From Candidatus Heimdallarchaeum aukensis (GTDB lineage Archaea; Asgardarchaeota; Heimdallarchaeia; Heimdallarchaeales; Heimdallarchaeaceae), in contig CP084166.1 in assembly GCA_021513695.1 (NCBI GenBank), positions 2,496,001 to 2,560,000 on the forward strand: a DNA stretch of 64,000 nt, written 5' to 3'. Under the pieces are notes generated by a model. That model did no database searches, was not told where the DNA came from, and worked only from the letters and a program-made list of their open reading frames with translations. This document shows, one piece after another, positions 2,523 to 22,700 of the stretch (positions within the stretch are counted from its first letter, which is position 1; each line of letters opens with the position of its first letter). A program made the position numbers and the translations under genes.

Positions 2523-2556
2523 AACTGCAACTCAATAGATTTATAAATTGTAAAAT

Positions 2557-2560
2557 GGAG
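2557..2560 (+). promoter_or_regulatory. Shine-Dalgarno-like GGAG 8 nt upstream of the GTG start at 2569
   Basis: 'aaaatGGAGctaaaaaaGTG'. The nearby ATG at 2555 is in another frame and terminates after 14 codons. Confidence 0.3.
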
Positions 2561-2568
2561 CTAAAAAA

Positions 2569-3108: not shown

Positions 3109-3118
3109 AGGAAAAAGA

Positions 3119-4219
3119 ATGTCTGAAAAGCCAGTAATTTTGGAGTTTAGTGAGTTTTTTGAGAGTTATTTGTCAGAAAAACCTTTCATTATTCGAGGTT
3201 GGGATGAAGATGAGAATCAAGAATTTAGAATTGAATATAATGAAGGTATTACAACATTTGATAAAAATTTAAAACCCTTAGATATAAAGAATTATCTCTT
3301 TAATATTGGTATCTTCCCTTCTGATGAAAAATGGTGGAGAGAAAAAGCATTTAAAAAATTGGAAAAACGATATAATGAAGCAATTGAAGAAGAAGAGGTT
3401 CCTGCTCTGGGTTTAGATACAAATATAATAATAAATGGCGTTTTTATCAACAGGTTAAGAGGATTATTAAAAAGGAAACTTAAATGGGAAAATCCTCTCC
3501 TTCTACTGTCTCTTGCTTCATCTCACGAGCTTCACTATGGAGCAGAATCAAAATATAATGACTCGTTTTATAACAAATCAAAATTGGACAATATATGGGA
3601 ATTTATTTTATCACTAGATTCTCAAACACAGGAACTAGCTAAGACTGTTTTTGGCACCTATAAACCTATAGAAAACAAAAACATTTTGAGTTCTTTACAT
3701 TGTAAAAGAGGAAGAATAGGGCTTATAGGTTCATATAACTATTATAAACATAAGAAACTACCAAATACTCTCATCATAAAATCGATTCATCCTTATAATG
3801 TTGCAAAGTTTGATTCAGATGGGCATAAATATAAAGGAATTGATGCAATTTACGACACTTTAATTGCTTATGAGTTCACTCAGTTTATGACCTTTACAAA
3901 TACAAAAGTAACGATTTTAACAATGGATAATTCTTTAGCAAGTTTATTACAAAATGCATCAGTGGATGTAGTTTATATACCACCTCCAAGTAAATTTCAA
4001 TTACCAAAAGAAATAATTATCCCTCAAAGAAATTGTTCTATCCTTCTGAGAGAACTATTAGTAAGATCTCCTTTTATCGTTATTGAGGATGAAAATAAAA
4101 AAATAGTATTATCAATGATTTGGATAGGACAAACAGATGAAGAAAAAGCAAAAGGAGTAATTCATGGAGTAGTGAAAGAAAAAAATAAAACTAGATATTT
4201 ATTAATAAAGAGCCAATAA
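3119..4219 (+). CDS. PIN-like nuclease domain protein with uncharacterised ~95-aa N-terminal region
   Basis: 'ALGLDTNIIINGVF' is a typical first PIN acidic motif. Later candidate acidic positions are 'HYGAESKY', 'IDAIYDTLIAYE' and 'ILTMDNSLASLL' (T-x-D type last motif). GAGG lies upstream of the ATG. Confidence 0.45.
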   Translation: MSEKPVILEFSEFFESYLSEKPFIIRGWDEDENQEFRIEYNEGITTFDKNLKPLDIKNYLFNIGIFPSDEKWWREKAFKKLEKRYNEAIEEEEVPALGLDTNIIINGVFINRLRGLLKRKLKWENPLLLLSLASSHELHYGAESKYNDSFYNKSKLDNIWEFILSLDSQTQELAKTVFGTYKPIENKNILSSLHCKRGRIGLIGSYNYYKHKKLPNTLIIKSIHPYNVAKFDSDGHKYKGIDAIYDTLIAYEFTQFMTFTNTKVTILTMDNSLASLLQNASVDVVYIPPPSKFQLPKEIIIPQRNCSILLRELLVRSPFIVIEDENKKIVLSMIWIGQTDEEKAKGVIHGVVKEKNKTRYLLIKSQ

Positions 4220-4305
4220 ATTCTTATCATCTTTTTGTAATTCGCTTAATTGCTTCTTAAGTATTGAATAGATAAATTAAAGCAAGCTGATGCTAAAATA
4301 TTTAA

Positions 4306-5127
4306 GTGAAAAACACTTTTACTGTTATGGAAAATTGCTCTCTTTCTTCTAAAGATATGATTAAATTATACCTAGAAGTTGAAAAGGTTGCACGGTTTTA
4401 TGGAAAAATAAGACTTGTAGTCAATGATAAATTAAAGGCTGATCTTAAGGGAGAAGAGAAGACGAATTGTGGGCAGTTTCCTGCAAATAGTAAAAAGTTC
4501 CAAAAGTATTGGGGACTATTTAAAGAATTAAATATGAATACAAAGAAAATAAACAAATCCTATAAAACAATTAGTATTCCTAAAGAAGAATATAATAATT
4601 TAAAGAATAACAATAATAAATTAAAATATCAACGTTTTAATGTTCTTCGAGACTATTTTGCAATAAAAAGAATTCAAACTCTTCCACCAGAAAAAAAAGA
4701 ACAAATAATAATTACACTAGGATATAGAGATATCTTGCCACCAAACGTAGAAATGAAAACTTCAAATGAAAACCTAATCAAAATAATTGAAAATACAGAA
4801 GATTATTTAATTTATTTTAATTTGGAATCAGAGTTTGCGTTTCGTATGATATTTAGACATTTTTTGTGTTCGTTTTTGTTTAATGAACTTAACCTTTTTC
4901 CTGATAAAGAGATTCATATTTTAAAAAGAAATAGTTTGAAAAGCAAAAATAAGAATAATAAAGCTATTTCTAATCGTCTAATTATTTATAAGAGTGACAA
5001 GAAAAACTTTGAACTTATTTCAGAAACTACTTATCAAAACTTATTGAAACTTGTGGATGATACACAACTACACCAAAAACTTATGAAAATTCATTTAGAT
5101 TTTGAAAGAAATAAAGAAGGAATATAG
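4306..5127 (+). CDS. hypothetical Lys/Asn-rich protein (start uncertain: GTG 4306 or ATG 4327)
   Basis: Long ORF with no competing ORF on the other strand. No motif recognised. Confidence 0.4.
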   Translation: MKNTFTVMENCSLSSKDMIKLYLEVEKVARFYGKIRLVVNDKLKADLKGEEKTNCGQFPANSKKFQKYWGLFKELNMNTKKINKSYKTISIPKEEYNNLKNNNNKLKYQRFNVLRDYFAIKRIQTLPPEKKEQIIITLGYRDILPPNVEMKTSNENLIKIIENTEDYLIYFNLESEFAFRMIFRHFLCSFLFNELNLFPDKEIHILKRNSLKSKNKNNKAISNRLIIYKSDKKNFELISETTYQNLLKLVDDTQLHQKLMKIHLDFERNKEGI

Positions 5128-5172
5128 GACTAAAGAAATTAGTTAACAAGTTTTTATCATTAGATAAAATCA

Positions 5173-5949
5173 TTAATAATCATTAATGCAAATATCTTTG
5201 ATTTTAAAATTCTCTTTGCCTTCTTTAATTGGATACAAAAACCACCAACGCTTTGACAGCTCTTTTTCAGATATATTCTCTATGAGATTCGAAATAAAGT
5301 AAGAAAATGACAAGTTCTCTATTTTGTAGATAGAATACACATCATTAAGTTTGTCTTGCATTTCTCTTTCTAGCCATAATTTAATAAATAGATTTTCACC
5401 CATGCAAATATGATTTACAAACCCTTGACTATTTTTTAATGCTGCAATAATGTGTCCTTGAATTAATCCTTCATTTAAACTATTAGATCCACTATAAGCG
5501 AAAATTCCATTAAACTTGCTTTTTCCAATTATTTTTCCATTAAAAGACGCATTATCCATAATTTCTTTAATGTTGCTATTGTTTACTTTTGTTTTGACTT
5601 CAATGATACCTTTAACATTATCTGGTGTTGTAATTACAAAATCTCCTTCTACAAATAACGCTGGATATGTATTATCGTATAGAATTATATCTATTTGTTT
5701 TGATATTTCAGTTCCGAAATTCTCACAATTATGTTTATAATTAATTATGAATCCTGTTCCTATGCTTATGTTAGAAGGCAAAAAACGTTTAATAACATTT
5801 TTTAATATAGCTTCCTTAAATCTTCCTTCTTCTCCCCAGTGTCTATTTCCTATAAGATTTCTTACTCTATTTTGAACAATTTTCAACTCTCTTGTAATAG
5901 AACTATGAAATTCTTTAGGGTTTATATCCCATCTATTCCTCTGATTCAT
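5173..5949 (-). CDS. PD-(D/E)xK-type nuclease-like protein (resembles DUF6602 family)
   Basis: 'SKQIDIILYD...' followed ~30 aa later by 'VKGIIEVKTK' gives a D...E-x-K arrangement. Family assignment is from memory of the consensus, not a search. Confidence 0.5.
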   Translation of the reverse strand: MNQRNRWDINPKEFHSSITRELKIVQNRVRNLIGNRHWGEEGRFKEAILKNVIKRFLPSNISIGTGFIINYKHNCENFGTEISKQIDIILYDNTYPALFVEGDFVITTPDNVKGIIEVKTKVNNSNIKEIMDNASFNGKIIGKSKFNGIFAYSGSNSLNEGLIQGHIIAALKNSQGFVNHICMGENLFIKLWLEREMQDKLNDVYSIYKIENLSFSYFISNLIENISEKELSKRWWFLYPIKEGKENFKIKDICINDY

Positions 5950-6346: not shown

Positions 6347-7109
6347 GGTAGTGTCTAGTTTTTTTCCGACAAAAATATTTGTGGGGACTCTAATAGTAAG
6401 ATATGAAAACACAAAAACTATCTGCTCTTTTTAAGAGATGCAGAGTCCCCAAAAAAATAATAATAAAAGCTATTTATGAATATATTGGTTCAAAGAATGG
6501 TTTGAGGACAGTAGCATGGAAGAATGGTTTAACGCATCAAACATTATTGTATTGGGTAAAGAAGTTCAGGCTCTTTAGGGAAAGTTTACATAGAGTTGTA
6601 GCAGAGAGAGGGGGAATACCAGAGATTATAGTAGTAGATGAAACAGAGATTAGGACCTCTCAAGGCTCAATATATCTGTGGTTCGCGTTAGATCCTTACA
6701 ACAAGACTTTACTGGGTTTTAGTATTACTAAAGGACGGAGTAATCTTGAATGTTTACTAACTTTCCGTTATTGGCTCAAATGTTGGGGTTTTAAGCCTCG
6801 TATTGTCGTTACAGATGCAGGGGTATGGTATCCTGTCTTACTTCGTCTAGGTATCAAAATCTCCGTTATCAAAGGTGGTTTACGCTCCTATATTGAACGT
6901 TTTAATGCTACTCTTAAGAGTTATCGTTGGTTTCATTCTATTCTCCACTGCACTTGTCCTATCCGTGCCGTCTATGGCTCTACTCATCTTTCTGGTTTTC
7001 TTACTCTCTTTATGCTCCATTATAATTTCGTTCGTCCTCATCAGAGCTTGGGACATCCTCCCCTTAGTTCCTTTTTACCTAGGAGGTGGTATAAAAACTA
7101 GACACTACC
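6347..7109 (+). mobile_element. IS6-like insertion sequence, copy A (763 bp), with its own flanking direct repeat
   Basis: Terminal inverted repeats: GGTAGTGTCTAGTTTTT (6347-6363) and its reverse complement (7093-7109). A 9-bp direct repeat ATATAAAGC abuts each end (6338-6346 and 7110-7118). Single DDE ORF inside. Confidence 0.85.
6403..7101 (+). CDS. DDE transposase (IS6-like; family tentative)
   Basis: Candidate D-D-E: 'VVDETEI', 'VVTDAGVWY', 'YIERFNATLK' (K at E+7). C-terminal 'YNFVRPHQSLG' is integrase-core-like. About 93% identical to the copy at 14619-15317. Confidence 0.85.
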   Translation: MKTQKLSALFKRCRVPKKIIIKAIYEYIGSKNGLRTVAWKNGLTHQTLLYWVKKFRLFRESLHRVVAERGGIPEIIVVDETEIRTSQGSIYLWFALDPYNKTLLGFSITKGRSNLECLLTFRYWLKCWGFKPRIVVTDAGVWYPVLLRLGIKISVIKGGLRSYIERFNATLKSYRWFHSILHCTCPIRAVYGSTHLSGFLTLFMLHYNFVRPHQSLGHPPLSSFLPRRWYKN

Positions 7110-7408: not shown

Positions 7409-9922
7409 TTATTTATCTCTATTTATGAAATTCATTAAAACCTTTAAGCAAGAATATTCTTCTAATTTACCAATATAAACATTCTTGAATTCACCATTGA
7501 TTTTTTCTCTTAAAATTAAATGTTTCTGTTTATTTATTATCAGGCGCCCACCAGTTGGTTTAAATTTTCTAAAAATAAACCACAAACTTTGAGCTTCTGG
7601 AAAAGTAATTTTTTCTGCTAATTCTTTTGGTTTGTTCAATAATAATTTTCCATTTGATTTAAAACTCAGAGTAATTATTGCTTTAGTATCTCCTAGGTAA
7701 AAATCTCCAATCTCTAGTTTTTGCAAATCTTCTTCTTCAATTTCCTCTTTTTTCTTATATTCCTTTTCTAGCGGCTTTTCTGATATAAACTCTCCAAATT
7801 CTGACCACAAACGATATTCAATATTGCTTTCACCAATCACCTCATTCCAATTTAATTTATAGAATATTTTTTCATCTGTTGTGTTTTTTACATAAATATT
7901 GAACAATGTTGTGTGAGTTTTTCCTTTTGCTTTTCGGAGTATTCTTCCCAAGGATTGAATTCTTTGTATTTTTGAAGACGATGATGCCATTATAATTCCT
8001 ATATTTGTTGAAGGGATATCTACTCCTTCAATTAGTGCCTTAGCTGATAATAGAACTCTGGTTATTCCTCTTCTATACAAAGTTAAACCAATCCTATTAA
8101 GTGATGAAGGAAATCCTGAATGATAAATGCTTACATAGGGAGAATCTAATTCAACAAAAACTCTATTTATCTCCCCTATAAGTTCATGAAATAAAATAAC
8201 TCTATCGTTTCTTGAAATTGTATATAAAGGACTAGTTTCATCGCTATATTCTTGAATATTTTTTGAAATCACTCTATTTAATATTTTTAATGTGAGTTTT
8301 TTTCTATTTTCTGACTGATATACTAAGTCCTTCCTTTCCTTTATTTTTTTGAAGTATTGGTTAATAAGTGGATCTTTTTTTTCTTTACTCATTTTCTGTA
8401 GAACGGGATAAATATTTATCATGTCAAGTGATAGTTGAGGATATTTGTAATTTAATGCATCAATAATTTTACTTATTTCTTTAGTTAAATTTTCATATTT
8501 TCTTTTTTCATGATTTGTAAGGACTACTCCATAGTTGTAAATATTGTATTTTGGTATTATTCCATCATCAAATGCATTTTTGTAAGTATAATTTCCTATT
8601 ATTTCTCCTAATTCTCGAATAATAACTTCATTAAAAGCATCATCCGATTCTCTTTCTGGTGTAGCTGATAGTCCTAAAGTGTAAGATCTCTTAGCTTTAT
8701 ATATCTCACGAAACTTCGGGGCGCCAGATTTGTGACACTCATCTACAATTAAAAGATTTGCTTGTAATTTTTCTGTAACTTTTCCTATTAGATTGTTTTC
8801 TATTGCAGAATTAATGACAAAAATGAAAATTTCTTTTTGATCAAAACTGTCTGAATAATCACCACCTTTTAATGCAATTTTTGACGGTTCAACGTGTAGT
8901 TTTTCTATAAGATTATCATACCATTGTTCTAGAAGTACTATTGTTGGGACAACTATAGTAACTGTCAAATTTGGTTCAATTTTCTTCATTTCTTGAATAA
9001 TTGCCATGGCTAAGTGTGTTTTCCCAGCTCCAGTAACTACTTTAGCAATACCTCTTTTCTGTTTCATCCATCGTTCAAGGAATTTTGATTGCCATGAATA
9101 AAGAGAATCTTGCAATTGCCATTCTAGTCCTTTAGTTTTTTTTATCTCTTTTTTCATGTCAATAATTGGGTTTTTCATGAATTCATCAAAATCGTTTTGA
9201 TGTTTAAGTATTTGATATCTCCACTTTCGATTAGGGAGATGGGCTTTAATTGTTAAGTGATATAGTTTTCTCAATTCTCTTATTGGTACATCTCTTCTAT
9301 TTAGTTTCTGTAATCGAGTAAGTAATTCTTTACTTAAATTGTGGGCGTAGGATAAAATTTCTTTTCTATCTCTCTCTCCTAAACTAATAGTTCCTTGATA
9401 GTAGTGGATCACTCCACATAAATCTAATACTTTCAAAATTTCTGACAAATATCTTCTGATTGTGTCTACATTCTCAATTTCATAATCATTTGCTTTAAGT
9501 AAGGTAATAAACTTAGAAAGTTTCAATCCTGAATTGTTTTTGCAAACGATATCATAAACATCTGGTAAAAAGTAAGCCCATTCTAAATTTCGACAAAGGC
9601 ATTTTAAAATATAGTTTTTATATTTAATTTTTCCGTCTAAATATTGGACAGAAAGATCAGAGAGAAAATAAAATTCATCTAAATATAGCATTTTATATGT
9701 AACTAAGCTGCCCAAATATCTTTTTGCCGTAGTGACTTTTATCTTTCCTTCTAATGTGTTACATAGTAGTAGCTTTGCTTCTTCTTCTGTAACTTTTTTA
9801 TCACGCAATTGCTTTAGAAAATTCTTCATTTTTTCTTCTGACTCAAGAATTGGATAAATTAGAGTCATATGGGGAACTTTCTTTTTTGTATCAATCAAAC
9901 CATCTGTCATAATTATCATCAA
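7409..9922 (-). CDS. SF2 (DEAD/DEAH, ResIII/XPB-like) helicase with ~270-aa unknown N-terminal region and a C-terminal copy of the module shared with the two upstream genes
   Basis: Motif I 'VVTGAGKTHLA', II 'LIVDECHKSG', III 'LGLSATPE', VI 'IQSLGRILRKAKGK'. The C-terminal 102 aa (nt 7412-7717) carry 'IGDFY...FKPTGGRLIINK...VYIGKL'. Start is ambiguous (several Met within the first 19 codons). Confidence 0.85.
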   Translation of the reverse strand: MMIIMTDGLIDTKKKVPHMTLIYPILESEEKMKNFLKQLRDKKVTEEEAKLLLCNTLEGKIKVTTAKRYLGSLVTYKMLYLDEFYFLSDLSVQYLDGKIKYKNYILKCLCRNLEWAYFLPDVYDIVCKNNSGLKLSKFITLLKANDYEIENVDTIRRYLSEILKVLDLCGVIHYYQGTISLGERDRKEILSYAHNLSKELLTRLQKLNRRDVPIRELRKLYHLTIKAHLPNRKWRYQILKHQNDFDEFMKNPIIDMKKEIKKTKGLEWQLQDSLYSWQSKFLERWMKQKRGIAKVVTGAGKTHLAMAIIQEMKKIEPNLTVTIVVPTIVLLEQWYDNLIEKLHVEPSKIALKGGDYSDSFDQKEIFIFVINSAIENNLIGKVTEKLQANLLIVDECHKSGAPKFREIYKAKRSYTLGLSATPERESDDAFNEVIIRELGEIIGNYTYKNAFDDGIIPKYNIYNYGVVLTNHEKRKYENLTKEISKIIDALNYKYPQLSLDMINIYPVLQKMSKEKKDPLINQYFKKIKERKDLVYQSENRKKLTLKILNRVISKNIQEYSDETSPLYTISRNDRVILFHELIGEINRVFVELDSPYVSIYHSGFPSSLNRIGLTLYRRGITRVLLSAKALIEGVDIPSTNIGIIMASSSSKIQRIQSLGRILRKAKGKTHTTLFNIYVKNTTDEKIFYKLNWNEVIGESNIEYRLWSEFGEFISEKPLEKEYKKKEEIEEEDLQKLEIGDFYLGDTKAIITLSFKSNGKLLLNKPKELAEKITFPEAQSLWFIFRKFKPTGGRLIINKQKHLILREKINGEFKNVYIGKLEEYSCLKVLMNFINRDK

Positions 9923-10712
9923 TTGAGTAGATTATTTTGGGCTCTCTTGGTCTGTCAATTTGTATTTGATGCTCATATTTTCCCAGATAGATAGGATACC
10001 AACTTATTTCTTTATCTTTGTTTCGACGATCTTTTTGAGGTTTTGTATACTCATTTAACAAATTTTTTTGGAGATTAGAAAAATCACGCCATTGTTGATC
10101 AATTATATCGCTTTTTAATACATCTTTTTTTATTAGATACTTCATTCTATCTTGAGTAATGGCTGTCCACATGTGCCCATATTCATTTATCCAAATAGAA
10201 CCTGCATTAAGCCAATTATATGAATTCTGCATTCTTCCTCTTAATTGGCATATCCTTTTCAGAAAACTGTTATTAAAATTTTGTACATAATAAGTTATTG
10301 AAGTACTTTTTGTATTACTTTGAATTTTTTCTAGAAAATAAATTCGTCCTTCTCTAGAAAATTTATACTTTGAACCGTGCTTTCTTAAAAATCCTGTCCA
10401 TAAAGAGCCAATTTCTAGATTTCTGGGGTTAATCTCAATATCTTCAAAAACTAACTCCTTATTTAATTGTCCAACATAAACTGGCAACCATTCATTCTTC
10501 TTTTTTCTAATATAAGTAATAATCTCTCTTTCTTCATTAATTATTATTCGACCACTATTCTCCTTTCTGACATCAATTATGTCTTCTATAATCTTTGAGA
10601 CGTCAGTGGTTGTTGGAATTTTTATATCTCTATCTTTGTAGTAAATGCCATCAATATTATAAACATATTTTGACCCTCGAACATGCTTGTCATAAATATC
10701 TCCTTTTTTCAT
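9891..10712 (-). CDS. hypothetical protein made of two copies of the shared module
   Basis: Copy 1: 'KKGDIY..GSKYVYNIDG..ENSGRIIINEEREIIT..PVYVGQL'. Copy 2: 'IGSLW..GSKYKFSREG..AGSIWINEYGHMWT..YPIYLGKY'. ATGA overlap with the upstream gene at 10709-10712. Confidence 0.6.
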   Translation of the reverse strand: MKKGDIYDKHVRGSKYVYNIDGIYYKDRDIKIPTTTDVSKIIEDIIDVRKENSGRIIINEEREIITYIRKKKNEWLPVYVGQLNKELVFEDIEINPRNLEIGSLWTGFLRKHGSKYKFSREGRIYFLEKIQSNTKSTSITYYVQNFNNSFLKRICQLRGRMQNSYNWLNAGSIWINEYGHMWTAITQDRMKYLIKKDVLKSDIIDQQWRDFSNLQKNLLNEYTKPQKDRRNKDKEISWYPIYLGKYEHQIQIDRPREPKIIYSIDDNYDRWFD

Positions 10713-12403
10713 TTTAATACACCAATTCTCGATAAAAATTCATTATCATCTTCTTCTGACCATTCTTTCTCTAAATCATAAGGAGGTTTGAATTTTATAT
10801 TTCCTGAAAATTTACCTAAATAAATTGGAATCATTCCGTCTCTATCGGTTTTTTTCCTAATATCAATCAAATTTTTTTCAAAATTTGATAACTTTGATAT
10901 TTGGTTTAATATTCTTCTAGGATAAGGAGCAGAGTACATTAATGTCAATATTGCTCCATTCTCGTTTATTTTTATTCTTCCACCTTGTGGTTTAAATTGT
11001 AAAACTGTTTCCACTATCTTTTCATGCCCTTCAACAGCATAAAATTTCCTGCCAGATACTTTTATGAATAATTGTCGATTAGCATTAATTCCAAAAGTGG
11101 TTCCATCATATATACTTGGCCATAAATCTCCTTTTTTTAACTTTAAAGGTTTCCAGGAAATTTTATTTTCTTTGAAAATTATTTCTCCAGTTAACATTGT
11201 AACAAATATCTGTTTGTATTCGCCATTTACTTCTTTTTTAGTGATTATTTCTCCGCTTTCAGTGATACGAAAACTACCACCTAGTGGTCTACAATTAAGA
11301 AGTTTGTTTTTTACTCTATTATCAGAAAATTCTATCTCAAGTTTTGTGTCTGTACCACTCAAAGACCACCAAAAACGACCATCAGAATTAAAATGATATT
11401 TAGTTCCACGATAGATACTGTGGTAGGTTTCATTCTCTTTGGAGTCCAAAGGAGCTAACCAAAAATCAGAGCGATAAAGATATTGATCATGAGATTTTGT
11501 GGTGTTTATTTCTTCTCGTTTTTTTAATAGTTCTTTCCAGTTTTCTTGCAAAGATATTTTGCCGTCTTTTACTGTATTCACTAGTTTAAGTTCTTTTAAT
11601 GTTTCTAGCAATCTTAATCCGTTTTCTTCACCAATTAAAATCAAAATTTCATTTAATTTTAACTCCAGTTTATTATTGAATAAGAGCAAAATTAATTTTT
11701 CTAGTTCATATGGTGATGGATCAATAAGATCAATTTCATTGATTATATTTTGTAAAGTAAATTTGTTATCATCTTTTAAATTATCTATTTCAAATAGTTC
11801 ATCAATACTGTACTCAACTACGCCAAATTTTTCAATAATTAAAGATAGCTCTGATTGTTTAAAAACAAATTCATTTGATGAAGTATTAGATAAAAATTGA
11901 GTGAGATTAATTTCATTTAGAACATTAAACCATAGATGTTTATCTCTTTCAATTTGATTGGTATCGTAAGAACTATCTCCTTTAAAACAAACAATAGAAC
12001 TAATATGCCTAACTGGTTGTTGTATAAAGCGGGCTGAAATAGATTTTAATACTTCATTAATGTAGTTCATTAATTCATATCTCTGTGATCTAACTTGCCT
12101 GAAAATGTTTTTTCCTCCATTAATAGGCAATTTTTTATTTTGGTCAGTTACAACATACCATTCACTGTTTTCGGATCCAATTACTTTTCCTTCATAATTT
12201 TTGACTTCAACACTAATAATAGCTTTATCTTTGAGGATAATTAAGTCATACTGGTGTTTTCCAATAATATAATCTAAAATTATGTGAATTGTTTGCTTAC
12301 TATTTTGAAATTCATCATAGATATTTTTTAATATCTTAGTAATTTGTTTTTTTTCATTTTCTTCAAAATCTAAAAAACCTGAATAATATGCCTTCACAGT
12401 CAT
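10709..12403 (-). CDS. NERD-domain protein with central helical/wHTH-like region and two C-terminal copies of the shared module
   Basis: NERD-like 'YDLIILKDKAIISVEVKNYEGKVIGSENSEWYV...NIFRQVRSQRYEL' (aa ~50-112). Module copies at aa ~308-412 ('GTKYHFNSDG..RPLGGSFRITESGEIIT') and ~413-540 ('KKGDLW..KPQGGRIKINENGAILT..IPIYLGKF'). Confidence 0.7.
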   Translation of the reverse strand: MTVKAYYSGFLDFEENEKKQITKILKNIYDEFQNSKQTIHIILDYIIGKHQYDLIILKDKAIISVEVKNYEGKVIGSENSEWYVVTDQNKKLPINGGKNIFRQVRSQRYELMNYINEVLKSISARFIQQPVRHISSIVCFKGDSSYDTNQIERDKHLWFNVLNEINLTQFLSNTSSNEFVFKQSELSLIIEKFGVVEYSIDELFEIDNLKDDNKFTLQNIINEIDLIDPSPYELEKLILLLFNNKLELKLNEILILIGEENGLRLLETLKELKLVNTVKDGKISLQENWKELLKKREEINTTKSHDQYLYRSDFWLAPLDSKENETYHSIYRGTKYHFNSDGRFWWSLSGTDTKLEIEFSDNRVKNKLLNCRPLGGSFRITESGEIITKKEVNGEYKQIFVTMLTGEIIFKENKISWKPLKLKKGDLWPSIYDGTTFGINANRQLFIKVSGRKFYAVEGHEKIVETVLQFKPQGGRIKINENGAILTLMYSAPYPRRILNQISKLSNFEKNLIDIRKKTDRDGMIPIYLGKFSGNIKFKPPYDLEKEWSEEDDNEFLSRIGVLK

Positions 12404-12561
12404 AATTTTTCCTCATTATGATAAATTAAGACAACTTAAAAATATTATATCTGAATTTCTTAAAAGCTTTGCTTTAAAAATGCAAAAAATTGCTATTTAT
12501 GTAGATCAAATAAAATTAATTTTTTAATAATGACGAAATTCTGTAAAAAAATAAGTTTATC

Positions 12562-12611
12562 CTCTCTTTAAATGATAAAATTAAATAATTCCTTTTGTTA
12601 TTTAAAGAGAG
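12562..12611. promoter_or_regulatory. 12-bp perfect inverted repeat (CTCTCTTTAAAT / ATTTAAAGAGAG) with 26-nt spacer in the divergent NERD-operon / HNH intergenic region
   Basis: Arms at 12562-12573 and 12600-12611, read directly. One such repeat could occur by chance in an AT-rich 64-kb window. Confidence 0.2.
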
Positions 12612-12800
12612 ATTCAATTTAGTTTAAAAAAGGAATCCTAGAATTGATGTTTTACTGATAAAAGCACTTCCTTAATTCCAAGTTATATTATTTTAAACAA
12701 ATTTAATATAGATAATAATTAAAAAAGAATCTTGTGAGTTCGATATATTTATTCCTTCTTGATGACATTATTTTTATAATCTCTATTTAAATCATGAATT

Positions 12801-13994
12801 ATGGATGTTCTTCTTGCAATAGAATCTGTTCTTTTTGATGAGAAGAAAACTAGTACATACAAATTTGCTTTGGTAACTGCAATTATTGATTATGTCATAG
12901 AAAATCCAAACGAGTTTCCAGAAAACGGTTTTCACTATATACCAATTATTTATCTAGCAAAAAGGTGGTTATATTATTATTATCCATTGATGGTTTATGG
13001 GGAGAGAGGAGTTAGACAAGGATCAACACAGATATCTTTGCATCGATTTATTAGAGAATTTGTTGAAAAGCAAAGGGATAAGTCAATAAATTATTTTGAA
13101 CCTGAAGCAATTCTTAAAATTAAAGAAAGAATAGAAGATAATGAAATATTGGATAAGGAACTGATTTCTTTACTAATAAAGATAAGAAGAGTTATAATAA
13201 GCCAACCTTTACAATTCATTAAAATTGCCAGTAATAGTTTTATTCAAGAAGAGTTAGTAGAAGGAATAAAATTTAAAGATGAAACCTTTTCTCTCTTTGG
13301 ACTATATAACAGTTTACTAAAATATAATGAAAAAGAAAACTATCAAAGTATTAGATCGAAATCAACTAATTGGGAAGGAGAAAGAGGAGAACAAACTTGG
13401 TTGGAATTGGAAGCTGAAGAGACATTATTTATACAAATGGGACATTATACTTACAAAGAATTAGCAGAATCAAGATTTTTTATAAAAGATGCAATAATAA
13501 AAAGATGGTTAGAATATTCAGTAGAAAAGTATCTGCAAGCAGATGCTAAAGCAATTTATGCATTATTTTACGGACTAAAACTACATGAAAAAAGACTGGA
13601 AAGAGAATCAGGAAAAATACAGAAGATGAGAAAAATAGCCTTAACAGTTTTTAAACCGATGAAATGTATTTACTGTGGAAAAGAAATAAGAAAATTTGAA
13701 CTAGATCACCTAATACCTTGGTCAAAGTTTCCAGTTGATAGATTCTGGAATCTCTTTCCAGCATGCGAAAGTTGCAATAGAAAAAAATCAGATAAGATCA
13801 TAAGTATAGAAAGAAATATTCAAAGTAAAATAGCTGAATATTTAAAAGCGTGGCTGGAATATTTTATAGAAAATAAGGAAGAATTGGCAGTCCTAGGAGG
13901 AAAAGAAACTCACAATCTAAATATGGAAAATATAGAATCTTCAATTCATCTGTTATTAGAACAAATAAAAGAAATAAATCAGAATTTAATTTAG
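12801..13994 (+). CDS. HNH endonuclease with ~290-aa uncharacterised N-terminal region
   Basis: C-terminal 'CIYCGKEIRKFELDHLIPWSKFPVDRFWNLFPACESCNRKKSDK' has the CxxC...DH...N...CxxCN pattern. The N-terminus ('TSTYKFALVTAIIDYV') is unassigned. Confidence 0.85.
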   Translation: MDVLLAIESVLFDEKKTSTYKFALVTAIIDYVIENPNEFPENGFHYIPIIYLAKRWLYYYYPLMVYGERGVRQGSTQISLHRFIREFVEKQRDKSINYFEPEAILKIKERIEDNEILDKELISLLIKIRRVIISQPLQFIKIASNSFIQEELVEGIKFKDETFSLFGLYNSLLKYNEKENYQSIRSKSTNWEGERGEQTWLELEAEETLFIQMGHYTYKELAESRFFIKDAIIKRWLEYSVEKYLQADAKAIYALFYGLKLHEKRLERESGKIQKMRKIALTVFKPMKCIYCGKEIRKFELDHLIPWSKFPVDRFWNLFPACESCNRKKSDKIISIERNIQSKIAEYLKAWLEYFIENKEELAVLGGKETHNLNMENIESSIHLLLEQIKEINQNLI

Positions 13995-14013
13995 ACAGAA
14001 GAATTCAGCTTGA

Positions 14014-14400
14014 CTAATAGTCATCTGTTTCTTCTAAACAAATATAATTAAACAACTCAAATCCTTTTTCAGTTAAATTGTTGTTTGTTACCAGCTCTAA
14101 AGACAAAAGAAGATTCAGTAAATCAACAATTGCCTTTTGATTTAAAAAAGAATATTTTCTATGTAATTCAAGAAATAATCTTTTGTATATTTTTGCTTTG
14201 AGTATTTAGTGAGATTTTTGAAAATAAATAGCTAATAATATTTTATACTCTTCTAGATTGATACTAGCTGGAGAAAAAATTTGTAATGAACTTGTATAAA
14301 GATAATTCAATAGCTGTTCATTTTTGATTTTTATTTGATTCTTTTTTTCTATTTTCAAAAGCATTCTATTTTTGTAATTAAGAAAATTATACAAAAACAA
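14014..14400 (-). pseudogene. small wHTH-like gene interrupted by one in-frame TAA (14206-14208)
   Basis: The 64-aa ORF 14206-14400 continues in the same frame for 63 more codons after the TAA ('ILKAKIYKRLFLELHRKYSFLNQKAIVDLLNLLLSLELVTNNNLTEKGFELFN...') to the TAG at 14014-14016. The downstream half has no start codon of its own. Confidence 0.4.
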
Positions 14401-14610
14401 AAGGAAATTTATGATATATGGTTAACTTTTTCCACCGAACTTCTACTTATAAAATATACCAGATAATTATCGTTCACAATAACATTAATGAAAATTTTAT
14501 CCTCTTACAAAAATTTGCTAAAATCTTTTTACAAAAATATTTTAAGGTATCACTGTATGTTTTTCTCATCTCTTTAATGTGTGGGAAAGAAATAGGGTAT
14601 ATAGAAAACC

Positions 14611-15372
14611 GGTAGTGTCTAGTTTTTATACCACCTCCTAGGCAAAAAGGAACTAAGGGGAGGATGTCCCAAGCTCTGATGAGGACGAACGAAATTATAA
14701 TAGAGCATAAAGAGTGTAAGGAAACCAGAAAGATGGGTAGAGCCATAGACGGCACGGATAGAACATGTGCAGTGGAGAATAGAATGAAACCAACGATAGC
14801 TCTTAAGGGTAGCATTAAAACGTTCAATATAGGAGCGTAAACCACCTTTGATAACGGAGATTTTAATACCGAGACGACGTAATACAGGATACCATACCCC
14901 TGCATCTGTAACGACAATACGAGGCTTAGAACCCCAACATTTGAACCAATAACGAAAAGTTAGTAAACATTCAAGATTACTCCGTCCTTTAGTAATACTA
15001 AAACCCAGTAAAGTCTTGTTGTAAGGATCTAACGCGAACCACATGTACATTGAGCCTTGAGAGGTCTTAATCTCTGTTTCATCAACTACTATAATCTCTG
15101 GTATTCCCCCTCTCTCTGCTACAACTCTATGTAAACTTTCCCTAAAGAGCCTGAATTTCTTTACCCAATACCATAGTGCCTGGTGTGTTAAACCATTCTT
15201 CCATGCTACTGTCCTCAAACCATTCTTTGAACCGATATATTCATAAATAGCTCTTATGATTATTTTCTTGGGGATTCTGCTCCCTTTAAAAAGGGAGTAT
15301 ATTCTTAGTTTGTTCATATTTTCACATTAGAATCCCCAATAATATTTTTGTCGGGAGAAACTAGACACCACC
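14611..15372 (-). mobile_element. IS6-like insertion sequence, copy B (762 bp), inverted relative to copy A, with its own flanking direct repeat
   Basis: IRs: GGTAGTGTCTAGTTTTT at 14611-14627, and ...AAACTAGACACCACC ending at 15372 (one mismatch). A 10-bp direct repeat ATAGAAAACC sits at 14601-14610 and 15373-15382. Confidence 0.85.
14619..15317 (-). CDS. DDE transposase (IS6-like), copy B
   Basis: 232 aa, collinear with the 6403-7101 product. Differences cluster in the first 13 aa, with scattered substitutions elsewhere. Confidence 0.85.
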   Translation of the reverse strand: MNKLRIYSLFKGSRIPKKIIIRAIYEYIGSKNGLRTVAWKNGLTHQALWYWVKKFRLFRESLHRVVAERGGIPEIIVVDETEIKTSQGSMYMWFALDPYNKTLLGFSITKGRSNLECLLTFRYWFKCWGSKPRIVVTDAGVWYPVLRRLGIKISVIKGGLRSYIERFNATLKSYRWFHSILHCTCSIRAVYGSTHLSGFLTLFMLYYNFVRPHQSLGHPPLSSFLPRRWYKN

Positions 15373-15423: not shown

Positions 15424-16245
15424 ATGAAAAAAGAGAAAGAGGACGCAATTAAAAAATTTGCGAATATTTTTTCAATGACAGCGGGAAATAGAAGTATATA
15501 TAAACACCTGGATTTTCTATTTAAAGATGATTATAATGGTTCAACAAAGAGAGATCAAATTATCTATTTATTAAAGAAATATTATCCTGATAATAAAAAA
15601 CTTATGTACATCTTAAGAGAGATTTTTGCAGTTCATAATGTTTCTTTTGTTAAACGTAATATTGATAAAATCAATGAATGCCTTATAAATTTTAATCTAT
15701 ATGTTGATGAAAATTTAAAACTTAATGTAATTGATTCTGTGATTATGTGTCTTAATGAGGCTGAATTCATAGTCAATTCTCAATTAGACAATATTCCGAA
15801 AAACTTACCCCAAATGCCAGAAGATATCCTGGAAAAAGGAAAAAATATGGCTTATGCATATTTACTTTTATATATCCTTGAAAATTATTTGAGGTTATTC
15901 ATAAGCCAAGCTAATAAGAATAAAAAATTAGAATACAGCGCTGGACAGAAAAAGAAAATAGAAAATAGAAAAAATCAAGAAGAAAAAAACACGTATCACG
16001 CTGTAAGAGGTACAAATGATCTCTTTTATCTTGATCTTAGTGATTTATGTTCTATAATTGTAAATAATTGGAATAGTTTTATTAAATATTTTCCAAATCA
16101 AAATTTCATCAAAACTAGGCTTGAGGAATTAGTAATAACACGGAATCACGTTGCTCATAATAGTATCATTTCTGACAATGATTTCAGGAGATTAATAACA
16201 TATTTTGAAGATATCCTTAATCAAATAGCCTTTTACTTTCATTAA
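15424..16245 (+). CDS. HEPN-domain protein (Swt1-like R-N-x-x-A-H motif) with unknown N-terminal region
   Basis: 'LEELVITRNHVAHNSIISDNDFRRL' near the C-terminus matches the Rx4H HEPN signature. Confidence 0.5.
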   Translation: MKKEKEDAIKKFANIFSMTAGNRSIYKHLDFLFKDDYNGSTKRDQIIYLLKKYYPDNKKLMYILREIFAVHNVSFVKRNIDKINECLINFNLYVDENLKLNVIDSVIMCLNEAEFIVNSQLDNIPKNLPQMPEDILEKGKNMAYAYLLLYILENYLRLFISQANKNKKLEYSAGQKKKIENRKNQEEKNTYHAVRGTNDLFYLDLSDLCSIIVNNWNSFIKYFPNQNFIKTRLEELVITRNHVAHNSIISDNDFRRLITYFEDILNQIAFYFH

Positions 16246-16317: not shown

Positions 16318-17919
16318 TTATTTCTCAAGTTCTTCTTTTATAGATGGAGTTACCCCCCCATGTTTCATTCTACGTTTCTTAATATTAACTAAAAGTGTAA
16401 AAGGAACAGATAATCCTGTAACCATAGCTTCACCAGTAGCTAGCCCTTTAATTGCTTCGAAATCTTCTTTTGTCATATGTTCTGCAATGTTTTGTACATA
16501 ATTTTGGTCTTTTGGATTCATCATTCTTAGTATAAAATGGGTGTTACATTGGCTTAAAATGTCTGCATCAACTTTAGAAGGTCTTTGTGATACAATACAC
16601 AATCCCATACCAAATTTTCTTCCTTCAGAAGCAACTCTTGCAATTATCTGTTTAGAAGCAGAAGGGCTTGTTCCTGGAGGAATGAAATTATGTGCTTCTT
16701 CAATAATTGTTAAAAATGGCTTTATTTTTGATTCATAACTTGTTTTCCTCAAATCAAAGAGTTTTCTTAGAATTAATCCTACTAAAGCTTGTTGATCAAA
16801 AGCTTCAATTCCTCCTAAGTCTAATATTGATATTTGCCCTTTCTTTACAAATTCTGAAACATCAGTTCCTTTTCCAAAAGTAAAATATGGTCTTTTCAAT
16901 AGTGCTCTCATTTTATTTTCAAGTGCTCTTCTTGTTCCTTTGTGTTCTATTCTTTCTATTGACTTTTCTATTAATTCCTCAATGCTGGTTGGAGGATTTC
17001 CATCAAGTGCTTCCATATGTATTTCATCCCAACCTCGATCTAATGATGCACTCTGAGCCTCTGAAATACCATAGTACTGTGAAAGTAAAGTCTTGATTTG
17101 CCATGTCTCTAACTCTGCTGGATGAAACTTAACACTAATTGTTACTCTTTTTCTTCCATGAACATCTTCAAACTTCTTTTCAAGTAAATAATTAAATTCT
17201 CCAGGAACAAATGTTAGTACTGACTTTGAGATTTCACGTGCTTCTCTTGAATCTTCATTAGGAATAAGTGTTGAAGAATATTCGCTATGAGGATCAATAA
17301 GAATGATGGGTAGTTTGAGATTATCTATTAAATATAATTCTTCGAGAATAACACCAACAGTATAACTTTTTCCTGCTCCTGTCATTGCTAAAACTGAAAA
17401 ATGATGTGTTACAAGTTTTTCATAATCTATATATGCTGGAACATTATGATTATCTCTCAAATTACCAATAATAATTGTTCTATCCTTAATGAAAAAAGAA
17501 GAAACAAATTCATCATCGGCCATATAAATAATTGTACCAGGATTAAGAGGGATTCGAGGTCTGACAAAGGCATTTCCTATTTTTCTTCCAATTATTAAAA
17601 CTGAAAATCCCATCATTCCAGCAATTTCAGAAGCTAATCCTAAATGTTCAATAGTCATAGAACTTGCCTCTAAGTCTTTTGTTCTAAGTTTTGGCATCAT
17701 ATTTTCATCTAATAGTAATCTGTTTTTTGTCCAAACAGATATAACTCTCCCTAGTAAAAATTCTTGTTTTTTATTTTCATCTAGATATTGTATTTTTACT
17801 AGTCTACCAATACCAATACTTGGCGAGTCTTTCAGAGCAATTGCTTCTACCAAGTATGGTGTTGTTTTTCCATAAACTATTCCAACAGGTATGTTTTTTT
17901 TCTCTCTATTTTGTTCCAT
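16318..17919 (-). CDS. herA: HerA-type (DUF87/FtsK-HerA superfamily) ATPase
   Basis: Walker A 'LAMTGAGKSYT', Walker B 'LTIIEEAHNFIP', 'GMGLCIVSQRPSKVD'. The N-terminal barrel-like region is 'PVGIVYGKTTPYLVEAIA'. Lies 9 nt downstream of the nurA-like gene. Confidence 0.85.
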   Translation of the reverse strand: MEQNREKKNIPVGIVYGKTTPYLVEAIALKDSPSIGIGRLVKIQYLDENKKQEFLLGRVISVWTKNRLLLDENMMPKLRTKDLEASSMTIEHLGLASEIAGMMGFSVLIIGRKIGNAFVRPRIPLNPGTIIYMADDEFVSSFFIKDRTIIIGNLRDNHNVPAYIDYEKLVTHHFSVLAMTGAGKSYTVGVILEELYLIDNLKLPIILIDPHSEYSSTLIPNEDSREAREISKSVLTFVPGEFNYLLEKKFEDVHGRKRVTISVKFHPAELETWQIKTLLSQYYGISEAQSASLDRGWDEIHMEALDGNPPTSIEELIEKSIERIEHKGTRRALENKMRALLKRPYFTFGKGTDVSEFVKKGQISILDLGGIEAFDQQALVGLILRKLFDLRKTSYESKIKPFLTIIEEAHNFIPPGTSPSASKQIIARVASEGRKFGMGLCIVSQRPSKVDADILSQCNTHFILRMMNPKDQNYVQNIAEHMTKEDFEAIKGLATGEAMVTGLSVPFTLLVNIKKRRMKHGGVTPSIKEELEK

Positions 17920-17928
17920 TTTCCTTCC

Positions 17929-19053
17929 TCAATGTAGTAATTTTCTCATTTTTGAATTAATCAAATCTCTGGCAATATCTGGTGCAATATCTCGTATCTC
18001 ATAAATTAGTTGGGTAAAGACTTTGGATGAAAATGATTTTGTTACTCTTGTAAGTTCGTCTACAAAAACTAAAGGATAAGGATATCCAACAACAGGTGAA
18101 ATCCGACATAAGTCATTAAATAATTCAAATAGTGAGTCCAATTTGGATAAATCCCATTTTGGAAATTCTAGATATAGTGCATGAGATGAATTAGGATACA
18201 AATAATAGGTACTACAAACACCTTCTCTTTTTAAGATTGAAATTGGGATTTCACCATGGGTGATACCAGCGACTGAAACATCTAAAGGTTCAAAATAAGC
18301 TGGTTTATCAGGCGAATATTTTCGTATTATATGTTGTAAAGCTATTCTTTCTCTCCAAGATTCATTTTCAATTAAATTTCGAAGAATTTCTAACTTTTCT
18401 TTATTAATATTTAATTTATCCATTACTTCCTTATCACACTTTAAAGCTCTTAGATATTTAGCTCTTCTCGCATCTTTTGATACTGCAATTACACTCACTT
18501 TACTCTTTTTTAAAGCTAAATTAAAAAAATCATTAGCATTTTTTTGATACTTTAGGAAAGCATCTGACAATTCTCTTATGTTAGTAACATTTACAGAAGT
18601 ATCAGGAAATGTGATAGCTCCATCAAGTAAAACAAGAGTTGGAATATCATCATCTATTTCATTAATTGCTTTTTTTGCAACATAATATTCTAAAGACTTC
18701 ATGAAAGTGGATGAAACTATTGAAGCTATATCTGAAGCTGGAGTATCAAAAAGTTGAATATCATTAAAATCAGTAATTTTTGCCTTTCCAAGTGTAATCA
18801 TAAAGGCTCGAGCAGAAGCAACAGCAAATCCCACTCCTTCTAAAGATGTATGATCCATCCCCCCATCAACGGCTATAACTCTCCAATTTTCATCTGAAAA
18901 TGATTTATATTTTGGAATATTTATGATAAGATCTTTTAAAATTTTGAAGTTATTGGCCTGTCTTCTAACTTTTGCAACAAGTTTTGGTACTTCTATTCTT
19001 CTATATCTATCAATTTCTTTCATAATAAGATTGAAATTATCCATTATCTTCAC
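17929..19053 (-). CDS. nurA: NurA-like nuclease
   Basis: 'WRVIAVDGGMDHT', 'LVLLDGAITFPD', 'VIAVSKDARR' and 'VGYPYPLVFVDELTRV' match conserved NurA blocks. Adjacency to herA supports the call. Confidence 0.72.
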   Translation of the reverse strand: MKIMDNFNLIMKEIDRYRRIEVPKLVAKVRRQANNFKILKDLIINIPKYKSFSDENWRVIAVDGGMDHTSLEGVGFAVASARAFMITLGKAKITDFNDIQLFDTPASDIASIVSSTFMKSLEYYVAKKAINEIDDDIPTLVLLDGAITFPDTSVNVTNIRELSDAFLKYQKNANDFFNLALKKSKVSVIAVSKDARRAKYLRALKCDKEVMDKLNINKEKLEILRNLIENESWRERIALQHIIRKYSPDKPAYFEPLDVSVAGITHGEIPISILKREGVCSTYYLYPNSSHALYLEFPKWDLSKLDSLFELFNDLCRISPVVGYPYPLVFVDELTRVTKSFSSKVFTQLIYEIRDIAPDIARDLINSKMRKLLH

Positions 19054-19783: not shown

Positions 19784-22700
19784 CTATGTAGAAATTGTTT
19801 TAATAATTAGTTTTCTATTAATTAGATCTTCTATACAATTATCTACTTTATTTTTACCAAACTTTTCGTACAATTTTTCTAACTCTATTGCTCTCTTTGG
19901 TCCCTCTTTTCCTATCTCAAAGGCTATATCTTTATATTTAGTGAAATGTTCTTCTAAAAATTTATCTGTTACTTGTTTAAGATTGTACAAATCGTCAATA
20001 ACATTAAAAGATATTTCACGTTTTGAATCAACTTTATTAAGTAAACTAGGGATTTCATTAATACTTTTTACATCTTGATTTGATAGGATTAGATCTATAT
20101 TTCGTTCCTTTATCCAATTAAAAAAATTTGAAATTTGATTTAGAATTTTTTGTACATTGCGAAGCAGTATAGTTTGAATATCCTTATAAAAAGTTTCAAT
20201 TTCAGCACAAATTCGTGCAAACCAATCTAAGTATTTGTTAGCAAAAAACGGATCCTCTGGTAGTTCTGCTTTTAAGACATCATTTTCTAATTCTCTAAAC
20301 TCTCTCTCACCAATTTTATCTATGATTGATGAAATTTCAGTACTATTCTCAAAAACATAATCCCATTTTTTAATATCAACCAATTTTAGATTTTTTAAAG
20401 TGCTTAAGTATTTGTTAATAATTTCTGTTTGTTTTTCTAGTTTGGAATACAATGAAGATATTTGACTTTTAGCTTCAATGTGCTTGTTAAGTTCCTTCTT
20501 TATATTCTCAATTTTTACAATAGCTTTGTTTATTTCATTAATTTTCTTTATTGAATTTAATACACTAATGATTTTTTGAACAATATTATTAATTTTCGGA
20601 TCTGATTTTTTACTATGTTTATTACATTCTGCACTTATCTGTTTTAACAAAATTCTTAAGCTTTCTAGCTCACTTGTCACTTTTGAATAATCTTCTTCAT
20701 ATGCTTCAACTACTTCTGAAAAATCCCTCAATTTTTCATGTAATTTGCTTCTTTCATTGTAAATTTCAACTAATAATTCTCCTGTAATGTCAATAAAGTT
20801 TTTAGGTACTATTTCTTCAATATCTTTAGCATTTTTCTCAATTTCAGAAAGTTCATTTTCTAAATTCTTCAACTCTTGTAAAGTTTCAATTTCTAAATTG
20901 ATTGTGTGAGTATTTTCAGAAAAATCGACTCTAATAGTTTCTAACTCTGTAAACTTCTCAACTAAATTTAAATATTGTTTGGTTACCTCGTTAAGGTAAG
21001 TTCTATCCAATTTAGGATTGTAAAAATCAAATTTAAATTTCTTTTTTGCCTTTGGTGCTTGATCTATTAGAATACCTTTTACTGTTAGGAGTCTGAGGAT
21101 CTCTATTTCTTCTAAAATTGAACATGAAAGAGCATATCGTCTTCTTAATCTTATTCTTGCCAATTCAGGATCAATAGAATGAGCAAAAACAGAAAACAGT
21201 TCTATTATATCACGTTCTATTAAACTTAATTTTTGTACTTTATTGAACTTGAAAAGGCTACCAAAGCGTTCAAGTTTAGTTTTTAATTCGTTTATTTTTT
21301 GGTTGTTGGGTTCTTCTGAAACAATTTCTTCCCATAATTCATAATAAGTATCTAGTAGATCGTTAAAATCTCTTTTTTGGAAAATTCTATTGTCAAGAGG
21401 TATTCTATCCATTTTGTCAAATTCAGTTCTTATTTCCTTTTGAGTGTTGGTAAGCCAAGTAATGAAATTGTTTTTTATATCATCATGATTTTTCTCTTGA
21501 TGTGTTTCTTTTGGATATAAAATGTGAATTAGATCTTTTTTAGGAATTCCATACACTTTAATTAAAGGACTGTCTCTAGGTTTTAAATCCACTATTCCAG
21601 TTAATTCTTGTGATAGTTTTTCATGTTTGATTATTTCGTCTGTTTCTTCAGGCACCAAAAATGTAATTGCTTCAAAAAGTTCTGAACTTTTTACACATAA
21701 CTTTAGGTAGGTTTTAAGAATATCTTTTATATCCTTCTCTATTGATGGCTTAGCAAGCATGATTGCATTTTTTGGAGAGTCAATTGCACATACCAAATCG
21801 TTAATATTCTTATCTTTAGTTCCTAAAACGGAAATATAATGCATTTTTAGTATTTCTTTTAGATTTTTTGAGAATTTAACTGATATTTTTCTAGAAGATT
21901 CATTATCAAATTGCTGTAATGCTTTTCTCTCACCACTTATTTCTATACCTCTTATCTGTTTTTCTTTAATTTCATTTTTCCATCTTTGTTCAGAAATAAG
22001 TATATATGATTTTGCTTTGTTTTCAAACAATTCTCTTAATTCTTCATTTAACGTTTTCAGATTTTTTTTCTTAACTGCAATATAAGTGTTATATTCGCTA
22101 ACTGGAACTGTAGTAGGATCGTAATTATTCTTTACTAAATCATTATCAATATATGTTGCATACTTTTTAATAAGTCTGATATTTCTGTATTGACTGTCTT
22201 TTTCGCTGTATTCGATGTCTTTAACTATTTCTTCGTAATTTTCTATATTATCTTCATAATTAATAATTAATAAATCATCAACAAGACCTGAATCGATTAA
22301 CCGGTTTTTAAAGAATTCTACCAAATTTTGATCGATGTAATTTTTAAGTTCAGCATCAGAAATTGCAGAGTGGTCAAAATAAATTCGAAAAAGTAATTTG
22401 TAGATTGTTTCTTCATTAATGTTTATTTCTTTTGCAAACTTTCTTGCTACCTCAATTAACGAGGAATTAATCTTTCTTAACGCATTTTCAAAATTCTCAT
22501 TATTTAATCCTAAGATTTCAGGTTTTTTTATTATCTCTTCAAAATGTTCTAAGGTGAATTGAATTATTATTTCTTCTTTTCTTTCTAAGGTTTTTTTTGC
22601 TAAATACACCACTAGTCTATCCATCAATTTTATTAACATTCTTGTATTAACATAGGTATATTCATGTACTAAGGCAGAAAGCTTAGCTAAAGCTAAAGCA

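Follow-up and report, generated by a model that had tools for sequence, protein, structure and literature searches.

The 64,000-nucleotide stretch of Candidatus Heimdallarchaeum aukensis contig CP084166.1 analyzed here (positions 2,496,001 to 2,560,000; hereafter the window) raises the question of whether its gene for an HNH endonuclease, at 12801..13994 on the + strand, belongs to the operon from which it diverges or stands by itself. That operon (7409-12403, - strand) encodes a NERD protein, a 273-amino-acid (aa) protein, and a helicase. An earlier note on this DNA had proposed the HNH gene as a possible fourth functional component of the operon, with an independent type IV-like enzyme as the alternative. 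Comparisons across the HNH family and, in reverse, across homologs of the operon showed that the HNH gene is independent of the NERD/helicase trio, so that the first half of the alternative stands; its second half, a type IV-like activity, is the reading of function that is favored and weighed below.

Relationship to the NERD/helicase operon

A one-genome-per-species scan with a 14-sequence alignment added 80 loci to the family, and 89 loci made up the set that was searched by tblastn with the three trio proteins. The trio was found in L005 only, a related contig that keeps the adjacency (97% / 95% protein identity) but comes from the same species or lineage and hence is not independent evidence. 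The relatives at 46-70% identity (L001-L004 and L006) have other neighbors, with no NERD gene, 273-aa protein, or helicase nearby. In the reverse direction, homologs of the NERD protein (35-52% identity) were traced to four independent contigs (L092-L095), all of which encoded the trio as a tight co-directional operon: a NERD protein of 554-574 aa, a 252-265-aa protein, and a helicase of 818-837 aa (L092 3169-8175; L093 8001-12916; L094 6452-11362; L095 1521-6470). An HNH-family member was found within 8 kb of the trio in none of the four. A 386-aa gene divergent from the trio in L092 was considered as a cryptic family member and dismissed after a negative search with a hidden Markov model (HMM). 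Within the window, homology links the entire 273-aa protein to aa 322-553 of the NERD protein, its C-terminal half (E 1.5e-12), and the C terminus of the helicase (aa 788-822) carries the GGRxxIN...YxGK unit common to the trio proteins, a repeat module to which the HNH protein showed no match.

What ties the HNH gene to the operon is position. The intergenic region of about 400 bp described earlier as common to both measures 397 bp (12404..12800); it is AT rich and lies between the NERD start codon, which ends at 12403 on the - strand, and the ATG of the divergent HNH gene. The bracket of insertion sequence (IS) copies that the earlier note had seen around both is likewise present in the window, as two inverted copies of 750 nucleotides (nt) that are 93% identical (6360-7109 and 14611-15360) and each encode a 232-aa rve-type transposase. 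On such grounds the divergent HNH nuclease could be a co-regulated effector or second nuclease of the NERD/273-aa/helicase system. That reading is left with next to no probability by a forward linkage of 1/89 (the same-species locus) and a reverse linkage of 0/4, by the repeat module missing from the HNH protein, and by the right-hand IS missing from L005. In the co-occurrence comparison that the earlier note had suggested, relatives of the HNH gene proved to be solitary or to have other partners, the very outcome it had named as speaking against a link; the proposal of a fourth component is thus largely refuted by the lack of linkage between trio and family in both directions.

The IS bracket is lineage specific and not a conserved mobile unit, because the colinearity of L005 with the window, at 95% nucleotide identity, is confined to 11019-14500, after which L005 continues (from its position 3485 onward) with other genes and no IS. 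For the same reason, the right-hand IS and everything beyond it (HEPN and HerA/NurA genes) owe their junction with the HNH gene to a rearrangement specific to the lineage. In L005 the HNH gene is followed by a ferredoxin-like gene, and the 64%-identical relative in L006 likewise has a ferredoxin-like gene downstream; these two loci suggest that the HNH gene is the resident and the trio a neighbor specific to the lineage. A TATA-like tttttataa at 12771-12779, ~25 nt upstream of the HNH ATG, would be compatible with the gene having its own promoter and a leaderless mRNA, and such boxes are common by chance at the ~29% G+C found throughout the window.

The trio is therefore a complete three-gene unit and the HNH gene an independent neighbor, two things that had looked like one system, and tests of the trio should leave the HNH gene out. 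As side observations on the trio, one of the four contigs of the reverse comparison comes from a Thermoplasmata metagenome-assembled genome (MAG); in L095 the trio is directly followed by the BREX genes brxA, brxB, and brxC, it borders on a type I restriction-modification system in L094, and DpnI-like genes flank it in L093. The helicase core of the window copy matched PADLOC PbeA (E 8.5e-62), with TIGR04095 dnd_restrict_1 below threshold, and the N terminus of the NERD protein matched the PADLOC candidate PDC-M16A.

A two-part architecture conserved across the family

The coordinates previously given for the open reading frame (ORF) were borne out exactly by the ORF list, in which the gene is on the + strand, has an ATG start, and encodes 397 aa, the coordinates including the stop codon. 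Homologs align from Met1, and a search of 5.8 billion proteins returned 13 full-length relatives at 36-97% identity; one hit bears the name Heimdallarchaeaceae, indicative of an Asgard host. The ratio of nonsynonymous to synonymous substitution rates (dN/dS) between the window gene and its 97%-identical copy in L005 was 0.077; this is a real gene under purifying selection, and it is the only family copy within the 64-kb window.

The HNH (beta-beta-alpha-metal) nuclease domain occupies aa 289-333 (13665..13799, + strand), where Pfam HNH (PF01844; E 2.6e-9, 37.5 bits against a cut-off of 21.4) and HNH_4 (PF13395; E 1.4e-7, 31.8 bits against a cut-off of 22) both matched; HNH_5 also matched the protein (E 3.1e-6). 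The motif is of the variant D-H...N...N, with the beta-beta-alpha-metal core's features (a His with Asp before it, an Asn in the loop, and an Asn/His in the helix), and D302, H303, N317, and N326 were invariant in 14 close and 44 diverse relatives. It is flanked by C289-x2-C292 and C322-x2-C325, the two CxxC pairs of the structural zinc site that many, though not all, HNH members have. Both pairs are kept in the close relatives (Asgard clade), and among the 44 diverse relatives C289 alone of the zinc-knuckle cysteines is nearly invariant. The best sequence match in the PDB was the Geobacter (Gme) HNH nickase 4h9d, which could be aligned residue by residue, and matches in NCBIfam and PADLOC were confined to the HNH part of IscB, Cas9, and PtuB. 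The catalytic domain is accordingly classed by sequence as a Cas9/IscB-type HNH, with all of its predicted catalytic residues intact. The HNH motif reported by the earlier note was confirmed, but not its location at the extreme C terminus, because it is followed by a conserved extension of 64 residues (aa 334-397; 13800..13991, + strand) that is predicted to be helical by AlphaFold2 (AF2) and, in the family alignment, has conserved positions at L348, W351, F355, and G366.

A profile search over 1.84 billion representatives returned 749 cluster representatives at E<1e-10, most of them 360-420 aa long and matched in two blocks, an N-domain (profile positions 1-140) and a helical region plus HNH (~200-360), showing that the two-part architecture of N-terminal module and HNH is conserved family-wide. 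An HMM of the N-domain detected the family ORF in 89 of the 91 fetched loci. Hosts include Heimdallarchaeota and other Asgard MAGs, Bacteroidota (in culture, Mangrovibacterium, Aquirufa, Aequorivita, Psychroflexus, and Mucilaginibacter), spirochaetes, Bacillales with 328-aa forms, and Nostoc (cyanobacterial) plasmids. Three Asgard/uncultured-archaeon MAGs carry two diverged paralogs on different contigs (L015/L016 in CAZYCQ01, L017/L018 in WAKA01, and L013/L019 in BPTO01). Where members are annotated at all, they are called only "HNH endonuclease domain-containing protein"; this large family is still nameless, its reader domain is not represented by a Pfam model, and none of its structures has been solved.

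The N-terminal module (aa 1-288; 12801..13664, + strand) is uncharacterized. In the full-length AF2 model (mean predicted local distance difference test score, 72.8), it is predicted to consist of a helical body and a three-stranded sheet of short strands (aa 44-48, 166-170, and 209-214), with a variable insert of low model confidence at aa 141-164. Its family signature is S/T-T-Y20-K21-F-A-L-L and Y59-Y60-x-P62, in which K21 is invariant and some members read TYKPALL. The earlier description of ~290 unassigned residues holds for the 288 aa, which had no match in Pfam, NCBIfam, PADLOC, or the PDB sequence set (phmmer for the last); the string it quoted as their very beginning does not, as TSTYKFALVTAIIDYV corresponds to aa 17-32. 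A Pfam scan of 40 family members likewise left the N-domain without a match, and when homologs were sought with the alignment of the N-domain, 13 short fragments were all that came back. Matches of the N-domain profile to GST entries in the PDB were rejected as spurious, being due to a YYYP string.

Proposed function and competing readings

The combination of a non-specific HNH finger with a DNA-reader module is the standard type IV design, as in ScoMcrA, EcoWI, TagI, and winged-helix fusion enzymes. We propose, with a probability of about 0.5, that the HNH protein is a solitary, single-polypeptide reader-HNH defense nuclease dependent on DNA modification. The dependence is argued mainly from the general principle that a nuclease encoded alone would kill its host if it cut host sequence that bears no modification. 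Modification-dependent restriction would also be the most economical mechanism because the gene mostly occurs alone and, in the window, lacks a cognate DNA methyltransferase. By analogy, the protein fits the type IV design in being encoded alone, in lacking an adjoining DNA methyltransferase, in its location in defense islands, and in the diverged paralogs found in MAGs. Its N-terminal reader, putatively of a winged-helix type in the same structural class as the sulfur-binding domain (SBD) of ScoMcrA and the winged helices of ORC/Cdc6, would recognize a mark that is carried by invading DNA and absent from host DNA, and would position an otherwise non-specific HNH finger on the target, so that the HNH domain cuts near the recognized mark. 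Backbone phosphorothioate is one candidate for such a mark. In the bacterial relatives, a MazG-like, HIT, or methyltransferase partner might, more speculatively, rid the nucleotide pool of the modified nucleotides that the breakdown of invader DNA sets free and thereby keep them out of host DNA.

The N-terminal region is probably a DNA reader of the winged-helix class and no more than a candidate member of the SBD family. There are motif parallels, in that the SBD motif H/Y-R/Q-P-z-L-L followed by Y-P resembles Y20-K21-F-A-L-L followed by Y61-P62 in the HNH protein; these are suggestive only. Several results weigh against the proposal. The assignment of a winged-helix/SBD-type reader comes from a single method. 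A profile HMM of 40 N-domain sequences found nothing relevant in PDB sequences or Pfam, and Foldseek, which the earlier note had recommended for this region and which was run against the PDB, recovered the HNH domain alone, with no SBD/winged-helix match better than E 9.4. Comparison by hhalign of the N-domain with an SBD profile returned a probability of 0.13%, the profile being a thin one of two partial sequences (ScoMcrA SBD residues 111-191 and a SprMcrA fragment) recovered from the PDB sequence set via an anchor query made from published residue numbers; its sole local match, which was not significant, paired the invariant P48, and not P62, with P165 of ScoMcrA. The SBD structural matches were lost in a separate AF2 model of aa 1-150 that was better than the full-length one, which may mean either that the cut at 150 drops two of the three strands or that the resemblance lies elsewhere. 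Finally, many relatives have a fused or operonic methyltransferase, which is unexpected for a classical type IV enzyme.

Partners of several kinds, operonic or fused N-terminally, accompany about half of the loci of the family. Directly after the family gene, 17 Bacteroidota loci have a gene for a HIT protein, for a fusion of a class I methyltransferase to HIT (~290 aa), or for the methyltransferase part only, the last in two loci (L051 and L055); loci of this kind include L029, L030, L035, L039, L041, L042, L044, L047, L050-L055, L057, and L059. In most of the 17, the HIT or methyltransferase-HIT gene begins before the family gene ends, with an overlap of 9-22 nt across the stop codon, and in L030, for example, the family gene at 9989-11107 is directly followed by its partner at 11092-11964. 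The methyltransferase-HIT fusion had a sub-threshold match (E 1.5e-15) to TIGR04096, a dnd-associated putative methyltransferase, and another, likewise sub-threshold, to the Thoeris accessory protein ThsC, which the HIT partner resembles. A ~107-aa MazG-like/PRA-PH-like protein (YNKLVRDKIPEII...EELADI) adjoins the family gene in ~25 loci, among them those of most Bacillales and of two uncultured bacteria, as well as L007/L008 and the Asgard locus L013 (L013 5087-5422; L007 7636-7953; L020; L022; L060 9037-9360; most of L061-L087). In family members of 500-880 aa, a class I S-adenosylmethionine (SAM) methyltransferase is fused N-terminally to the N-domain and HNH (P0084, P0099, and P0144; L009 7736-10036; L091 4789-6603), and P0099 also ends in a LexA-like Peptidase_S24 domain. 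All of these methyltransferases are small enzymes of class I, resemble those that act on small molecules, and do not belong to DNA methyltransferase families. Neither the window copy nor most of its closest Asgard relatives are accompanied by a MazG-like, HIT, or methyltransferase partner.

The partner enzymes can be read in two ways, as sanitizers of the nucleotide pool or as regulators of a nucleotide-gated toxin. The toxin, or abortive-infection effector, ranks second among the explanations, although we consider it unlikely: a small nucleotide would restrain or switch on the HNH nuclease, the partner would control that ligand, the N-terminal module would be the ligand or regulator domain, and the window copy would be an orphan effector. 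It would account for the nucleotide-acting operonic partners of about half of the loci, including the MazG-like neighbors that extend to an Asgard locus, the HIT and methyltransferase-HIT genes that overlap the family stop codon, and the likeness of the HIT partner to ThsC. Less likely still is a housekeeping or selfish nuclease (for repair, recombination, or homing) that would bind DNA through a winged-helix domain and play no part in defense. HNH plus a DNA-binding domain is the standard layout of a homing endonuclease, and some bacterial relatives do lie among housekeeping genes, as in L007, between ETF, dehydrogenase, and peptidase genes; however, the gene does not lie within any intron, intein, or other gene, the Asgard and Nostoc plasmid copies are in defense islands, the distribution is patchy across distant phyla, and the two diverged paralogs of several MAGs are typical of defense genes diversified in specificity. 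A homing or phage origin was rejected, as no full-length family member was present in 50,697 phage records, where matches were limited to the HNH part (aa 249-365). A more ambitious form of the modification-dependent reading, which we regard as improbable, would see in the family an undescribed, widespread module, in which a divergent SBD-like winged-helix reader-HNH attacks DNA modified in its backbone or bases (possibly by phosphorothioate) and is paired with an operonic sanitizer of the nucleotide pool. The sanitizer would be either a hydrolytic enzyme (MazG-like pyrophosphatase or HIT hydrolase) or a methyltransferase of class I with kinship to the dnd-associated TIGR04096 family; by destroying the modified nucleotides that DNA breakdown sets free, it would stop salvage from writing the mark into host DNA and making the host a target of its own nuclease.

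If the reader of the favored modification-dependent nuclease does recognize a mark on DNA, a new reader domain for modified DNA would be gained with this family, and such readers have practical use, as SBD enzymes do in phosphorothioate mapping. A restriction nuclease coupled to nucleotide-pool cleaning would, if true, be a new idea. Across its range of Asgard archaea and several bacterial phyla, the family is repeatedly, and for no evident reason, linked to nucleotide-hydrolyzing partners, and it is mostly this pattern of partners, more than the locus in the window, that makes it of interest.

Judged by its gene content, the whole window is one long defense island. In the stretches 990-5949 and 15424-48540 it encodes PLD (990-2522), a CARF/Csa3-like protein (2569-3108), DUF6602 (5173-5949), HEPN_Swt1/PDC-M34B (15424-16245), HerA (16318-17919), NurA (17929-19053), a 1224-aa AAA protein (19784-23458), a TGT/DpdA-like protein (25283-26515), GmrSD (27123-29267), UvrD+PD-(D/E)XK (30500-34222), and a ResIII helicase (38666-41659) with an N6_N4 methyltransferase (43013-45574), together with DUF3800 and AAA_14/DUF4143 genes. 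Relatives of the HNH gene adjoin genes for GmrSD, AAA_15/21, PLD, KAP NTPase, SMODS, and DUF262. In the window, the HNH gene lies between the NERD operon and an IS, with no DNA methyltransferase on either flank. Among the 26 ORFs of the window that were compared with Pfam, none was a dnd or ssp gene, and neither Rfam families nor tRNA were above threshold in the whole 64 kb. Stretches of raised G+C were seen at 24-25 kb, 52-55 kb, and 57-59 kb.

Comparison with known systems

Two familiar classes were considered and set aside. Type II restriction-modification was rejected, as no cognate DNA methyltransferase lies beside the HNH gene, the nearest (the N6_N4 enzyme) being 29 kb off and paired with its own ResIII helicase. 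Membership in the RNA-guided IscB/Cas9 group was rejected as well: the NCBIfam IscB match reached 32.8 bits against a cut-off of 175 and covered aa 277-338 only, the protein has no RuvC split by an HNH insertion, and the window gave no Rfam hit for a guide RNA.

The SBD-HNH enzymes ScoMcrA, SprMcrA, and EcoWI are type IV restriction endonucleases whose cleavage depends on Rp-phosphorothioate in DNA and whose SBD has a winged-helix-like fold with a helical body and a three-stranded sheet. They differ from the HNH protein in their reader, to which the reader described here has no detectable sequence relationship (empty HMM search; the hhalign probability above, from a thin profile), so that it is not a member of the SBD family by sequence; it is also ~100 residues longer, and Foldseek saw no similarity. 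The sulfur pocket of these enzymes is formed by H/Y-R/K where helix 1 begins and by Y-P where the recognition helix begins (H116, R117, Y164, and P165 in ScoMcrA); Y20-K21 and Y61-P62 of the HNH protein are putative counterparts at most. The HNH protein further departs from these enzymes in its Cas9/IscB HNH_4-type D-H-N-N domain and its 64-aa C-terminal extension, and the MazG-like, HIT, or methyltransferase partners of its relatives are not described for them. Characterized SBD-HNH enzymes are themselves seldom near dnd clusters (<3.6%; PMC7461809). As for other modification-dependent nucleases that join a reader to HNH, such as the SRA-HNH enzyme TagI, EcoKMcrA, and the winged-helix fusion HhiV4I, Pfam found no SRA, McrA N-terminal domain, or DpnI-type winged helix in the HNH protein, whose reader would by this measure be a different, unnamed domain.

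The best PADLOC scores of the HNH protein were to Septu PtuB and the candidate PDC-M01B (E 1e-8 to 1e-5), but these matches cover only the HNH core (aa ~260-335), and no PtuA-type ATPase is adjacent to the gene. Another parallel may lie in Group 23 of the His-Me finger nucleases, described as 180 unannotated bacterial HNH proteins encoded beside MazG genes and without a Pfam match (Jablonska et al. 2017, PMC5714182). The pairing of HNH with MazG recurs in the Bacillales, some Bacteroidota, and one Asgard locus of the present family, which differs from Group 23, as compared by description, in scoring on Pfam HNH and HNH_4 and in not being only bacterial; it is plausible that Group 23 is identical with the Bacillales branch of this family.
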